Positions 2,139-12,086 of a stretch of DNA of 12,086 bases are shown here, one piece after another. The DNA comes from a virus (lineage: Duplodnaviria; Heunggongvirae; Uroviricota; Caudoviricetes), in IMG/VR virus record IMGVR_UViG_2703718792_000009; one strand, 5' to 3'. A program made the position numbers and the translations under genes. Numbering within the stretch: position 1 is the stretch's first letter; the number at the start of each line of letters is the position of its first letter. Below the pieces are notes generated by a model. It made no database searches and was not told the origin of the DNA. It worked only from the letters and a program-made list of their open reading frames with translations.

Positions 2139-3041
2139 ATGCCAAATTTACCGATGGGCGGATCGCAGGGTGAATTACCCTTAGTACCTACAGTAGAAGT
2201 TGTTGCTGATGGCATTCCTATGGGGGTGCTTAATGATGGAACCCCTTATCTAACTCTTTACGGTTTAGCCAAATTATGTGGCATAGATGAAGCACCTCTT
2301 CGAATGTTTACATCTAACTGGGAGACTGAAAAAAATAAGCCAAGAGGACAAAAAGTAGCTGCATACTTAGCTGAGAAAGGATTTAACAACGTTGACCGAC
2401 TGTATACCCGCGTCATAAATAGCTCAAACGTTGAAACACATGCTTATCCTGACTATGTTTGTATGGCTGTTCTTAGGTACTATGCCCTCGATGCCACAAA
2501 TTTTGATAGATCCGTTGCAATAGGAAACTTTGTTCGCTTAGCTGAATACACGCTCAAGCGAATGATCTATGAAAAAGCAAACTATAACCCCAACGCTGCC
2601 ATAGACGTTTCATTCGAAAACTATAGAGCTCGTATAAAGCTAAACAACCAAATACCAACAACTCATTTTGCTGTATTCAGAGAAATAGCAGATATTGCAA
2701 TGACGTTAATAGGAAATGGCTTTCCTATGGATGATACCACGTCACTAGACGGAAGCGTTGGAAATCACTGGGGAAAGTATTGGACAAAAAACAACCTTTC
2801 CGAGAGATTTGGTGATAGAGTTCAATATCAACACATTTTCCCTGAAAACTACAGGCAATCTGCAGCCAACAAGTACATAAAAGCCTGGATTTACCCTATC
2901 GAATCATTGGGGCTATTCAGGAAATGGCTTCACGATAACTATGCCATGGAAAAACTACCCAAATATCTTGGAAACAAAAAAATCAGTAACATAACTGAAC
3001 TATTGGAAGCCGTCAAAAAACCAGCATTACCAAACCAGTGA
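2139..3041 (+). CDS. Hypothetical 300-aa protein in the rexAB-equivalent slot (between cI and PL/nutL); candidate prophage-encoded anti-phage (abortive infection / exclusion) protein
   Basis: Long clean ORF; AAGGA 12 nt upstream of ATG; followed by a strong intrinsic terminator. Not RexA-like. No P-loop or obvious nuclease motif seen. Looks AT-richer than cI by eye (not computed). Confidence 0.8.
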   Translation: MPNLPMGGSQGELPLVPTVEVVADGIPMGVLNDGTPYLTLYGLAKLCGIDEAPLRMFTSNWETEKNKPRGQKVAAYLAEKGFNNVDRLYTRVINSSNVETHAYPDYVCMAVLRYYALDATNFDRSVAIGNFVRLAEYTLKRMIYEKANYNPNAAIDVSFENYRARIKLNNQIPTTHFAVFREIADIAMTLIGNGFPMDDTTSLDGSVGNHWGKYWTKNNLSERFGDRVQYQHIFPENYRQSAANKYIKAWIYPIESLGLFRKWLHDNYAMEKLPKYLGNKKISNITELLEAVKKPALPNQ

Positions 3042-4467: not shown

Positions 4468-4557
4468 GGCATAAACAACAGAATAAACACAGCACTGTGT
4501 ATTCATTCCAACGAGTGAATACACGGAGCAATTTAAAGCGTAAATAAGGAGCACACC

Positions 4558-4698
4558 ATGCAATATGCCATTGCAGGGTGGCCTGTTGCTGGCTGCCCTT
4601 CCGAATCTTTACTTGAGCGAATCACACGTAAATTACGTGACGGATGGAAACGACTCATCGACGTACTTAATCAGCCAGGAGTTCCCCAAAATGGATAA
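4558..4698 (+). CDS. cIII: cIII (46 aa), lambda cIII-like
   Basis: MQYAIAGWPVAGCPSESLLERITRKLRDGWKRLIDVLNQPGVPQNG, near-identical to the recalled lambda cIII N-terminal 46 aa; AAGGAG RBS upstream. Confidence 0.85.
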   Translation: MQYAIAGWPVAGCPSESLLERITRKLRDGWKRLIDVLNQPGVPQNG

Positions 4699-5705: not shown

Positions 5706-6173
5706 ATGTCTCACTTGGACGGAATTATTAAAAGATTCGAGTCCAGCTACAAAGTTAATGAAACAACAGGTTGCTGGGAGTCTACCTATTCAAAAAACAA
5801 AGGAGGATACACAAAATTTGTAGCCTTTGGCGTAACAATGCTTTCTCATCGGGTTGCTTTTGAGCTTTATCACTCCCCCATTCCATCTGGGAAGATGGTT
5901 TGCCACAAATGCGATAACCCATGCTGCGTTAATCCTGAACATCTCTTTTTAGGTAGCGCGCAAGAAAACATGGACGACAAGATAGCAAAAGGAAGGCATC
6001 GTGGAGCCAAGAAAGGTCATGCTCATCATGGTGCAAAATTAACAGAGTGGCAGGTTATAGAAATTAGGAAAAGACTCTCTGAAAAAGAGAGTCAGTACAA
6101 GATAGCAAAAGACATGGGTGTATCTCAATCAATTATAAGCAACATAAAAACTGGCAAGAGGTGGAGCAAATGA
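5706..6173 (+). CDS. HNH endonuclease (155 aa), free-standing
   Basis: Core [27 protein letters not shown] (HNH with Cys-rich metal site); start is immediately after the annealing-protein stop and the stop overlaps the ssb start (ATGA). Confidence 0.8.
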
Positions 6174-9812: not shown

Positions 9813-9870
9813 AATCCTCGCACTCGCGGGGATTTCTTTTATCTGAACTCGCTACGGCGAGTTTTGTTTT
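9813..9870 (+). terminator. Two tandem hairpin + T-tract elements (9813-9842 and 9846-9870), candidate intrinsic terminators or attenuators
   Basis: AATCCTCGC-actc-GCGGGGATT + TCTTTTAT (one G-U pair), then AACTCGC-tacg-GCGAGTT + TTGTTTT. Confidence 0.45.
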
Positions 9871-9883
9871 ATGGAGATGATAA

Positions 9884-10051
9884 ATGCACTTCCGAGTCAC
9901 AGGTGAATGGAATGGAGAGCCATTCAACAGAGTTATCGAAGCGGAGAACATCAACGACTGCTATAACCACTGGATGATATGGGCGCAGATAGCACATGCA
10001 GACGTAACCAATATTCGAATTGAAGAACTGAAAGAACACAAAAACGCCTGA
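9884..10051 (+). CDS. Hypothetical 55-aa protein
   Basis: GGAGA RBS 6 nt before ATG 9884; MHFRVTGEWNGEPFNRVIEAENINDCYNHWMIWAQIAHADVTNIRIEELKEHKNA; bracketed by hairpin/T-tract elements; short, so uncertain. Confidence 0.35.
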   Translation: MHFRVTGEWNGEPFNRVIEAENINDCYNHWMIWAQIAHADVTNIRIEELKEHKNA

Positions 10052-10066
10052 TGGCGGTTTTTTATT
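10045..10066 (+). terminator. Weak intrinsic terminator candidate overlapping the stop of the 55-aa ORF
   Basis: CGCC-tgat-GGCG stem (4 bp) followed by GTTTTTTATT. Confidence 0.4.
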
Positions 10067-10073
10067 GCCTGAT

Positions 10074-10089
10074 TTGCAGGTTCGATTCC
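10074..10089 (+). other. tRNA-derived fragment: T-stem 5' half plus T-loop (TTGCAGGTTCGATTCC), not part of a complete tRNA
   Basis: Contains the GGTTCGATTCC T-loop signature; no D-arm or anticodon arm upstream. Matches my recollection of the segment of tRNA-Arg (argW) immediately 5' of the fragment at 10379-10393. Confidence 0.5.
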
Positions 10090-10108
10090 CTATTCGGAGA
10101 TAGCACTC

Positions 10109-10309
10109 ATGCAACACGAACTACAACCTGATTCACTGGTTGATTTGAAATTCATCATGGCCGATACTGGCTTCGGTAAGACCTTCATCTATGACCGGAT
10201 TAAGTCCGGCGACCTGCCTAAAGCCAAAGTTATCCACGGGCGAGCAAGATGGTTATATCGTGATCATTGTGAATTCAAAAATAAGCTCTTAAGCCGCGCC
10301 AATGGGTAA
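10109..10309 (+). CDS. torI: AlpA/TorI-family excisionase (recombination directionality factor), 66 aa
   Basis: MQHELQPDSLVDLKFIMADTGFGKTFIYDRIKSGDLPKAKVIHGRARWLYRDHCEFKNKLLSRANG, a winged-helix Xis/AlpA-type fold signature; matches my recollection of E. coli KplE1 TorI; last prophage gene before the att core; CGGAGA RBS. Confidence 0.75.
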   Translation: MQHELQPDSLVDLKFIMADTGFGKTFIYDRIKSGDLPKAKVIHGRARWLYRDHCEFKNKLLSRANG

Positions 10310-10378
10310 AATAGCGGGTAAAATATTTCTCACATCTAAAAAACACCATTCCAATCAATCCCCTGCCTCGTCAAGTAG

Positions 10379-10393
10379 ATGTCTGCAGGGGAC
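10379..10393 (+). other. Right attachment-site core (attR): 15-nt copy of a tRNA 3' end (CTGCAGGGGACACCA), consistent with tRNA-Arg argW
   Basis: T-stem 3' half, acceptor 3' half, discriminator and CCA with no upstream tRNA body: the partial duplicate left by integration into a tRNA gene. The argW assignment is from memory. Confidence 0.6.
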
Positions 10394-10838
10394 ACCAGAT
10401 ACCCTTCAAACCAAATCTACCTTCACCCCGTAAAAGATGGGTTTGGCAGCACACTTGCCCTATATCTACTCATTTTTACTGCAACAGGTTGAAATCTCAG
10501 CACTGTCAGAAAGCGCTGATGACTAAACAGCCCTGGGCCGGGCGATGTAACCATCATACAGAATCCTGATAGCGAAATATGGCGTGACTCGATACTTCAC
10601 TCTGCAATGCATTCCTTGATGAATTCGCAGGCCCGTGATACACGGGACAGGTCGCTGAATGACGACAATGTCCTGGAAATCAGCGAACCGCGTATCCGGA
10701 GTACATTTGAGCGACTGTACCAGAACATGAATGAGGCGTTTGGATTAGGCGATTATTAGCAGGGCTAAGCATTTTTGTATTATTATTTTCCGGTTGAGGG
10801 ATATGGAGATATCGACAACAACCGGAAAAAGTTTACGT

Positions 10839-12086
10839 CTATATTGCTGAAGGTACAGGCGTTTCCATAACTATTTGCTCGCGTTTTTTACTCAGGAAGA
10901 AAATGCCAAATAGCAACATCAGGCAGACAATACCCGAAATTGCGAAGAAAACTGTCTGGTAGCCTGCGTGGTCAAAGAGTATCCCAGTCGGCGTTGAAAG
11001 CAGCACAATCCCAAGCGAACTGGCAATTTGAAAACCAATCAGAAAGATCGTCGACGACAGGCGCTTATCAAAGTTTGCCACGCTGTATTTGAAGACGGAT
11101 ATGACACAAAGTGGAACCTCAATGGCATGTAACAGCTTCACTAATGAAATAATCCAGGGGTTAACGAACAGCGCGCAGGAAAGGATACGCAACGCCATAA
11201 TCACAACACCGATAAGTAATGCATTTTTTGGCCCTACCCGATTCACAAAGAAAGGAATAATCGCCATGCACAGCGCTTCGAGTACCACCTGGAATGAGTT
11301 GAGATAACCATACAGGCGCGTTCCTACATCGTGTGATTCGAATAAACCTGCATAAAAGACAGGAAAGAGTTGTTGATCAAAAATGTTATAGAAAGACCAC
11401 GTCCCCACAATAAATATGACAAAAACCCAGAAGTTTCGATCCTTGAAAACTGCGATAAAATCCTCTTTTTTTACCCCTCCCGCATCCGCCGCTATGCACT
11501 GGTGATCCTTATCTTTAAAACGCATGTTGATCATCATAAATACAGCGCCAAATAGCGAGACCAACCAGAAGTTGATATGGGGACTGATACTAAAAAATAT
11601 ACCGGCAAAGAACGCGCCAATAGCATAGCCAAAAGATCCCCAGGCGCGCGCTGTTCCATATTCGAAATGAAAATTTCGCGCCATTTTTTCGGTGAAGCTG
11701 TCAAGCAAACCGCATCCCGCCAGATACCCCAGGCCAAAAAAGAGCGCCCCCAGAATTAGACCTACAGAAAAATTGCTTTGCAGTAACGGTTCATAAACGT
11801 AAATCATAAACGGTCCGGTCAAGACCAGAATGAAACTCATACACCAGATGAGCGGTTTCTTCAGACCGAGTTTATCCTGAACGATGCCGTAGAACATCAT
11901 AAATAGAATGCTGGTAAACTGGTTGACCGAATAAAGTGTACCTAATTCCGTCCCTGTTAATCCTAGATGTCCTTTCAGCCAAATAGCGTATAACGACCAC
12001 CACAGCGACCAGGAAATAAAAAAGAGAAATGAGTAACTGGATGCAAAACGATAGTACGCATTTCTGAATGGAATATTCAGTGCCAT
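10839..12086 (-). CDS. cscB: LacY-family oligosaccharide:H+ symporter, most likely sucrose permease CscB (415 aa, complete; start codon is the last 3 nt of the window)
   Basis: Aligns by eye along its length with LacY (DKLGLKKPLIWCMSFILVLTGPF...NFHFEYGTARAWGSFGYAIG... vs LacY [23 protein letters not shown]...NFEFGRARMFGCVGWALC...); N-terminus MALNIPFRNAYYRFASSYSFLFF matches my recollection of CscB. Confidence 0.8.
   Translation of the reverse strand: MALNIPFRNAYYRFASSYSFLFFISWSLWWSLYAIWLKGHLGLTGTELGTLYSVNQFTSILFMMFYGIVQDKLGLKKPLIWCMSFILVLTGPFMIYVYEPLLQSNFSVGLILGALFFGLGYLAGCGLLDSFTEKMARNFHFEYGTARAWGSFGYAIGAFFAGIFFSISPHINFWLVSLFGAVFMMINMRFKDKDHQCIAADAGGVKKEDFIAVFKDRNFWVFVIFIVGTWSFYNIFDQQLFPVFYAGLFESHDVGTRLYGYLNSFQVVLEALCMAIIPFFVNRVGPKNALLIGVVIMALRILSCALFVNPWIISLVKLLHAIEVPLCVISVFKYSVANFDKRLSSTIFLIGFQIASSLGIVLLSTPTGILFDHAGYQTVFFAISGIVCLMLLFGIFFLSKKREQIVMETPVPSAI

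Follow-up and report, generated by a model that had tools for sequence, protein, structure and literature searches.

The DNA analysed here, a stretch of 12,086 nucleotides referred to as the window, raises the question of where a prophage keeps its integrase. The phage genes of the window end in the gene of a recombination directionality factor (RDF), or excisionase, and are followed by a chromosomal sucrose permease gene. On the phage side of the attachment core no integrase gene lies beside the RDF gene, so that this lambda-type feature is absent from the window. An earlier reading made from the letters alone (the sequence-only reading) proposed that the integrase sits at the opposite prophage end. 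Our analysis confirmed the observation, with small corrections, and supported its interpretation, which is textbook for the recombination module associated with the tRNA gene argW and not a discovery. The layout, the argW site and the neighbouring sucrose genes were already known. We conclude that a lambdoid prophage has very probably inserted into the 3' end of argW by means of a module of the KplE1/HK620/Sf6 type, and that the region is its attR junction.

The torI gene and the interval up to cscB

The features from the RDF gene to the right end of the window are as follows.

10109..10309, plus strand: torI, the RDF (excisionase) gene of the KplE1/HK620/Sf6 argW module; by sequence identity also the TorR response-regulator inhibitor
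10304-10311 and 10316-10323, plus strand: two direct GGGTAAAA repeats, putative IntS arm-type sites of the P arm
10383..10397, plus strand: attR core CTGCAGGGGACACCA, identical to the 3'-terminal 15 nt of the tRNA-Arg(CCU) gene argW; prophage/chromosome crossover region
10398..10838, no strand assigned: host DNA on the B' side of the core, joined to argW in prophage-free genomes
10523..10759, plus strand: decayed internal fragment of a DUF4942 gene (Pfam DUF4942, E=8e-6)
10786..10829, minus strand: stable hairpin of 11 bp just past the stop codon of cscB
10839..12086, minus strand: cscB, sucrose:H+ symporter of the LacY family (415 aa), first gene of the chromosomal cscBKAR cluster

The ORF at 10109-10309 encodes a product identical over its entire length (66/66) to the E. 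coli K-12 Tor inhibition protein (PDB 1Z4H), and RefSeq labels the identical protein torI in the matching genomes. The sequence-only reading had described it as a "TorI/AlpA-like" directionality factor. Its assignment as an RDF and as the last phage gene before attR stands, but the label is understated, the protein being TorI itself. TorI exhibits no AlpA match in Pfam, where HTH_17 reaches a sub-threshold 16.9 bits (cut-off 27), and no NCBIfam model matches it. With tblastn, Pseudomonas phage genes labelled "AlpA family" exhibit 43% identity to TorI over 47 residues; the PADLOC "mad1" model also matches TorI (E=7.6e-14). In a scan of viral contigs for TorI, each of the IMG/VR loci listed (80/80) encodes the identical protein. 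Its counterparts in phages HK620 (HkaC) and Sf6 (gp18) are likewise 100% identical to TorI by tblastn, in agreement with the published identity of the HK620 and Sf6 RDFs (PMC3509656). TorI has been reported to bind both TorR and IntS (PMC3509656). A role of the window's protein in TorR inhibition, raised earlier as a possibility, is not new: a protein of the same sequence has been shown to inhibit TorR, by binding its C-terminal domain and preventing activation of the tor operon (PMC3509656), and this activity would apply to the TorI of the window by sequence identity.

The interval between torI and cscB (10310-10838) is 529 bp long and contains no integrase ORF, as had been noticed from the sequence. 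About 88 bp of it are phage sequence (P arm and core), and the remaining 441 bp are chromosomal. The accompanying statement that this gap lacks any ORF of at least 60 aa holds for ORFs with ATG, GTG or TTG starts, the longest of which encodes 50 aa (10607-10759), but open stretches between stop codons extend to 84 and 78 codons. In the source record, a 60-aa CDS is called at 10577-10759; it does not encode an integrase but represents an internal part of a DUF4942 gene. When compared with a 280-aa DUF4942 protein, the fragment is 59% identical to its residues 93-151; no NCBIfam model matches it. A tblastn search widens the match to residues 76-151 and similarity at the DNA level begins at about 10464, the remnant thus spanning about 290 bp (about 10464-10759). 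A full-length copy of this gene is found after yeeU-cbtA genes, beside a tRNA-Ser gene, and a DUF4942 gene is the usual terminal gene of CP4-type integrative islands. The DUF4942 remnant suggests that an older island was once present at argW on the csc allele.

The hairpin at 10786-10829 folds with a predicted energy of -17.3 kcal/mol (z = -3.8), a value that was not reached by any of 200 shuffled sequences. It is not followed by a T-run, and a terminator scan of 9850-10900 found none. A consensus promoter scan of the same interval returned a single promoter-like site (10756-10783), which is below the shuffle expectation. At gathering thresholds, the only Rfam match in the window is the lambda cIII thermoregulator, with nothing in 10000-10900.

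The permease is a genuine CscB. It is identical (415/415) to the RefSeq protein "cscB: sucrose MFS transporter" and matches Pfam LacY_symp (E=9e-194) and the NCBIfam oligosaccharide MFS transporter model. The next gene on the source contig is cscK (PfkB kinase gene), after which cscA, cscR, a shortened dsdX and dsdA follow in the matching genomes. This order is the same in matching genomes with and without the prophage, and the proposal that the permease places the integration site beside a sucrose-utilisation locus is thus borne out: the locus is cscBKAR. The cscBKAR genes are known to take the place of dsdC and of a part of dsdX at the argW recombination hotspot (PMC4366372). The closest known system on this side is the csc regulon at argW-dsdA, as in E. 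coli EC3132, W and O157:H7; the cscB of the window is identical to that of RefSeq, and the gene order of the locus is found in the matching genomes. Nothing of substance differs, the DUF4942 fragment belonging to the window's allele of the locus.

The attachment core and the empty site

The 15-nt core is an exact copy of argW nt 61-75. The sequence-only reading had placed the junction at 10379-10393. The junction is genuine, but these coordinates need correction: the core lies 4 bases further to the right, at 10383-10397. In K-12, the equivalent 15 nt carry the label pawZ, and KplE1 is integrated in argW with a 16-nt duplicated core, CTGCAGGGGACACCAT, on its two flanks (PMC2951348). The sixteenth base in the window is a G in place of the published T because the host flank differs from that of K-12; for the same reason, the direct repeat in the window measures 15 nt and not 16 nt. 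ARAGORN found no tRNA in the window; no more than the terminal 15 nt of argW are present in attR.

Several comparisons locate the prophage boundary. The alignment of the window with K-12 KplE1 extends from about 10059 to 10397 and is followed directly by complete divergence: beyond the core, K-12 exhibits dsdC-side DNA, in contrast to GATACCC... in the window. Free phages (Kapi1, HF4s, N7, Bas106 and others) also match the window only up to 10397. We further reconstructed the empty site as a 359-nt query, in which argW and its upstream flank are joined directly to the window sequence from 10398 onward. Among 5426 complete E. coli genomes, 1471 cover at least 80% of this query, and the best matches among those listed are all 100% identical over the full 359 nt. 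In strain 746, the order is yfdC, argW, DUF4942 fragment, cscB, cscK, cscA, cscR, shortened dsdX and dsdA. The flank itself (10398-10838) is found in 2624 of the 5426 genomes. Three independent breakpoints, namely the end of the KplE1 alignment, the end of the free-phage matches and the start of the empty site, thus meet at 10397/10398. Identical flanks in prophage-free genomes had been named as an observation that would speak against a genuine junction; in these genomes, the flank is found joined directly to argW instead.

Short exact matches can arise randomly, and about 0.2 occurrences per window are expected for a 15-mer if up to three mismatches are allowed. The 15-mer might on these grounds be taken for a chance match, with the true prophage boundary elsewhere. 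We consider this virtually inconceivable: it is already contradicted by the identity of the 15-mer with both the argW 3' end and the published core, and the three breakpoints coincide at its right edge.

The sequences flanking the core in the different att sites conform to the classical pattern. The attP of phage Bas106 reads ...AGTAGATGT-core-TTTATCAGTTCGC... (P-core-P'). The attL sites of AHB3, K-12 and MEI008 read argW(...GGTTCGATTC)-core-TTTATCAGTTCGC... (argW-core-P'), and the attR of the window reads ...AGTAGATGT-core-GATACCC... (P-core-B'). These combinations of flanks fit the Campbell model exactly.

The P arm between torI and the core carries the two direct GGGTAAAA repeats, the first of which overlaps the torI stop codon. 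The 23 bp spanning both repeats are equal to a sequence labelled "repeat_region attP" in HK620. TAAA is conserved in all IntS arm-type sites (PMC2951348). The GGGTAAAA repeats, which contain TAAA, match this arm-type motif and would accordingly be IntS arm-type sites. The primer attR-IHF2, used for the published attR substrate, maps to 10286-10305. A small ORF at 10302-10433 is the counterpart of HK620 hkaB and Sf6 gene 17. It crosses the core, and its 3' part is therefore host-encoded in the lysogen; we do not consider this ORF important as a gene.

Position of the integrase and layout of the module

In the free phages Bas106, HK620 and Sf6, the RDF gene is followed by about 250 bp containing attP and then by the integrase gene, all on one strand. 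The order of RDF gene, about 250 bp and integrase gene is observed in phage records from E. coli, Shigella, Klebsiella, Erwinia and Salmonella. It extends to increasingly divergent RDFs, with attP again between the two genes: Erwinia phage Midgardsormr38 (RDF 88% identical), Klebsiella phage Chronis (86%), Salmonella phage Emek (52%) and Erwinia phage phiEt88 (39%). Because of this position of attP, torI and intS are separated on integration and come to lie at the two ends of the prophage. The absent integrase is thus nothing anomalous; it marks a module with attP between xis and int.

Lysogens exhibit the corresponding order. That of K-12 is argW, intS ... torI, pawZ, dsdC, and intS and torI have been described as the first and the last prophage gene, respectively (PMC3509656). 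In the complete genome of AHB3, the order is argW, intS, a P22-like virion module ... torI, attR, cscB. MEI008, also a complete genome, exhibits the same ends as AHB3 around an unrelated 44-kb phage body. From the lack of an integrase ORF beside the RDF gene, and with the KplE1 element as a parallel, the sequence-only reading had placed the integrase at the opposite end, next to the intact tRNA gene; K-12, AHB3 and MEI008 all share this layout. The other prophage end was inspected in comparators with the same torI-cscB junction: both complete genomes examined, AHB3 and MEI008, have argW-intS there. The opposite-end layout of int and RDF genes has been published for KplE1, HK620, Sf6 and Kapi1 (PMC2951348, PMC3509656, PMC8787464), and the argW recombination module is conserved in HK620, Sf6 and CUS-3 (PMC2951348).

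The alternative of a lambda-like module, with an integrase formerly just downstream of the RDF gene and now decayed within the 529-bp gap, could draw on the open stretches of up to 84 codons in the gap and on the short CDS called there by annotators. Yet the sequence from 10398 onward is chromosome contiguous with argW and is 100% identical in the listed best prophage-free matches, the sole protein similarity in the gap is to DUF4942, and free phages have their integrase on the other side of the core. The probability that we would assign to a decayed integrase is close to nil.

The argW module and the lambda system have much in common: a tyrosine integrase with arm-type and core-type sites, the use of IHF, and a small RDF of the winged-helix type that binds repeated sites of one arm. 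In both, xis and int have the same orientation. The contrast with lambda drawn by the sequence-only reading, in which int and xis are adjacent, agrees with the location of attP between torI and intS in free phages. In lambda, attP lies beyond int, so that int and xis remain together at the same end of the prophage and share transcription from pL. In the KplE1-type module, in contrast, attP lies between xis and int, the transcription of the int and RDF genes is uncoupled, and the intS promoter is located inside attL (PMC2951348). Excision dependent on IntS, TorI and IHF has been demonstrated for the K-12 module both in vitro and in vivo (PMC2951348, PMC3509656).

Applied to the window, the argW-type module leads to the following proposal. 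The circular phage would carry torI (RDF), the P arm, a 15-16-bp core, the P' arm with the intS promoter, and intS, in this order and in one direction. Crossover by IntS in the core with the argW 3' end would linearise the phage between torI and intS. The resulting lysogen would have the order yfdC, argW(core), P', intS, phage body, torI, P, core and host flank. The attL of the window's prophage is predicted to read ...GGTTCGATTCCTGCAGGGGACACCATTTATCAGTTCGC..., followed by intS, and the junction of the excised circle to read ...GATGT-core-TTTATCAG.... Excision would require IntS from the far end, IHF, and TorI acting on GTTCG-type sites in attL.

From position 1 to about 10397, the window corresponds to the early-left arm of a lambdoid prophage. 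This arm comprises cII, cro, a LexA-type repressor gene, BstA, N, a gene for an Nmad5 protein, cIII (with its RNA thermoregulator) and kil. It also comprises genes for a Rad52-type recombinase, an HNH endonuclease, SSB and a 3'-5' exonuclease, an anti-RecBCD gene, Ea22/DUF551/DUF4752 genes and, at position 1, the O replication gene. The RDF gene has small early-left genes as its upstream neighbours; downstream of it come the core and then host DNA. The window matches, without any difference, the terminal 12 kb of the source contig LOGM01000010.1 (GCA_001606475.1), which breaks off within the phage O gene at window position 1; no gene called on this contig contains an integrase or recombinase domain (Pfam list, locus L008, whose coordinates are those of the window). 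We infer that argW-intS is present at the far end of this prophage and that the prophage is competent for excision.

The contig's lack of the other prophage end would also suit an orphan right end, in which the left part and intS have been lost and torI-attR is a stranded remnant unable to excise. Partial modules do occur. Of the 5426 complete E. coli genomes, 1888 contain the argW-intS attL and 1405 contain the torI-attR block; these unequal counts indicate that incomplete modules exist in the population, and the K-12 KplE1 is itself a 10-kb remnant. Even this remnant, however, has kept both ends. The visible 10 kb of the prophage looks intact and lambdoid, a contig break inside a phage gene is what the assembly of repeated prophage DNA typically produces, as opposed to a deletion, and intS is found at argW in both complete genomes examined with this junction. 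We therefore regard an orphan end as improbable, and favour a prophage with the complete argW module. The precise torI-cscB junction itself occurs in 372 of the 5426 genomes.

KplE1 (CPS-53) of K-12 is a close relative of this module. It shares with the window the same TorI protein, core and target tRNA and the location of int and RDF genes at opposite ends. Between torI and the core, the two P arms are almost identical and differ by 3 mismatches, and the box and ribosome-binding region upstream of torI are the same. KplE1 differs in being a 10.2-kb remnant that lacks an immunity region; in the window, the early region is lambdoid and includes a repressor gene, N, cIII and genes for recombination. 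Beyond the core, the host DNA differs as well: dsdC in K-12, the DUF4942 fragment and cscB in the window. The temperate argW-integrating phages HK620, Sf6, CUS-3, Kapi1 and Bas106 (P22-like and other lambdoid phages) exhibit 100% RDF identity, the same torI-attP-intS order, the arm-type repeats and the core, and match the window up to 10397. Their early-left genes upstream of torI are mosaic and unlike those of the window. In no complete E. coli genome is more than 56% of the 12-kb window covered in a single place.

The argW module has been studied since 2005-2010 and is present in about one quarter of complete E. coli genomes. The proper labels for the region are torI, attR (pawZ-type core, 10383-10397), DUF4942 pseudogene fragment and cscB. 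Tools for prophage boundary prediction that expect int and xis together will misplace the torI end; many IMG/VR prophage calls end 3 nt past torI.

A tRNA-like box in front of torI

Three further features precede torI.

10045..10063, plus strand: short GC hairpin and T-run after the 55-aa ORF 9884-10051; left boundary of the conserved module
10065..10077, plus strand: TTGC-N5-TTGC, predicted cII site of a putative "phage integration" promoter (pI), after the HK620 annotation
10074..10089, plus strand: 16-nt box TTGCAGGTTCGATTCC, an exact copy of argW nt 46-61 (T-arm)

The hairpin at 10045-10063 has a predicted 4-bp stem followed by UUUUUU. Genes upstream of it vary between prophages, and the sequence from the T-run onward is common to them. 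The segment 10065-10077 is identical to positions 1357-1369 of the HK620 locus (L184), labelled as a cII site in GenBank AF335538 with the sequence TTGCCTGATTTGC. The Sf6 record (AF547987) labels the same region "pI; possible integrase expression promoter". Our consensus scan of 9850-10900 gave no sigma-70 promoter support at the position of the HK620 "pI". PtorI has been called "non-characterized" (PMC2951348).

The box at 10074-10089 is a modest lead that stands outside our verdict on the junction. It can also be written (TTGC)AGGTTCGATTCC (12-16 nt), contains GTTCG and is equal to the left (B) half of attB. Together, the box and the core make up the contiguous 3' 30 nt of argW, split by 293 bp that hold torI and the P arm. 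GTTCG, GATCG and GTCCG are the known forms of the TorI site core, and five TorI sites are present in attL (PMC2951348). In the literature searched for the box sequence together with excisionase, we found neither its tRNA identity nor an operator role.

A T-arm-like RNA hairpin at the box was considered and rejected: the 3' stem strand is missing, and the fold of 10036-10125 exhibits no significant RNA structure (z = -1.96).

Among the listed loci with an identical TorI, 75 of 80 keep the exact 16-mer. The box is absent upstream of the RDF gene in Chronis and in loci L165-L175. The motif (A/G)GTTCGATTCCC is found upstream of more divergent RDF genes, in two tandem copies in Midgardsormr38 and in one copy each in Emek and phiEt88. 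In distinct upstream regions of Emek-like and phiEt88-like RDF genes, GTTCGATTCC is kept in 29 of 52; in 28 of these 29, it ends exactly 19 nt before the ATG, with varying flanking sequence. Conservation across families thus sits on the T-loop-like part and not on the TTGC repeats. The box might be a pure fossil of a longer ancestral attP, an explanation that we dropped as the sole one because the box is kept before RDFs of only 39-52% identity while its flanks vary. These conservation data argue for selection on the box. It may be an operator for the control of torI by TorI or IntS, or the functional core of the predicted pI promoter; we put this forward tentatively, as a possibility more doubtful than probable. 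If so, the excision switch would have recruited a sequence of tRNA origin for its regulation.

The box upstream of torI

10074-10089: exact 16-nt copy of the argW T-arm (tRNA nucleotides 46-61)

This copy of part of the tRNA-Arg(CCU) gene argW, the integration target, lies about 20 nt upstream of the ATG of torI, the gene of the recombination directionality factor (RDF). In tRNA numbering, the box is contiguous with the att core at 10383-10397 (nucleotides 61-75). A sub-motif of the box, (A/G)GTTCGATTCCC, is conserved, with constant spacing, in front of RDF genes whose products exhibit just 39-52% identity to TorI, and is present as two tandem copies upstream of the RDF gene in Erwinia phage Midgardsormr38. 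The box contains GTTCG, the published core of the TorI site (PMC2951348). In the records of the argW-type phages HK620 and Sf6, a putative pI promoter activated by cII is annotated in this region.

TorI itself received no family assignment from Pfam or NCBIfam, and matched the PADLOC model 'mad1' (MADS defence system component 1) with an E-value of 7.6e-14. The likely reason for this match is a small HTH fold of excisionase type common to both, not a role in defence.

The attR junction and the prophage limits

10302-10433 (+): 43-aa ORF, counterpart of HK620 hkaB and Sf6 gene 17
10464-10759: decayed internal fragment of a DUF4942 gene (residues about 76-151 of 280)

The start of the 43-aa ORF overlaps the end of torI and its reading frame crosses the att core, so that host DNA supplies the codons for its C-terminal part once the phage is integrated. 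This ORF is unlikely to be a genuine gene. The DUF4942 fragment occupies the interval between attR and the host sucrose permease gene cscB. CP4-type integrative islands have a DUF4942 gene as their terminal gene, and the remnant hints that argW on the csc allele was formerly occupied by an older island. RefSeq genomes carry the remnant as a 50-60-aa 'DUF4942 domain-containing protein' CDS; the 60-aa call on the source contig begins at a non-canonical start codon (ATA at 10577).

Among the IMG/VR prophage predictions that encode a protein identical to TorI (loci L012-L091), many stop exactly 3 nt past the torI stop codon, and such automated calls thus lose the attR P arm and core. At the other extremity, position 1 of the window is the end of the source contig and falls within the phage O gene; the prophage has therefore been split by the assembly.

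Other genes of the early region

2139-3041 (+): BstA abortive-infection defence protein, 300 aa (PADLOC BstA, E-value = 4e-106; Pfam BstA_C)
4545-4603 (+): RNA thermoregulator element of lambda cIII type (full-length match to Rfam RF01804, 88.5 bits)
5706-6173 (+): HNH_3/homing-endonuclease-like gene

The bstA-type gene lies immediately 3' of the LexA-type prophage repressor gene, and an identical BstA protein is encoded in Stx-type prophages carrying lambda-like int-xis modules (comparison loci L006 and L007). The HNH_3 gene exactly separates ssb from the gene of the Rad52-type recombinase. Because these two genes directly adjoin each other, with nothing between, in the related prophages of the complete E. 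coli genomes AHB3 and MEI008, the arrangement suggests that a mobile endonuclease gene has inserted here. The RF01804 match covers the start of the cIII gene (4558-4698 in the source-contig call).
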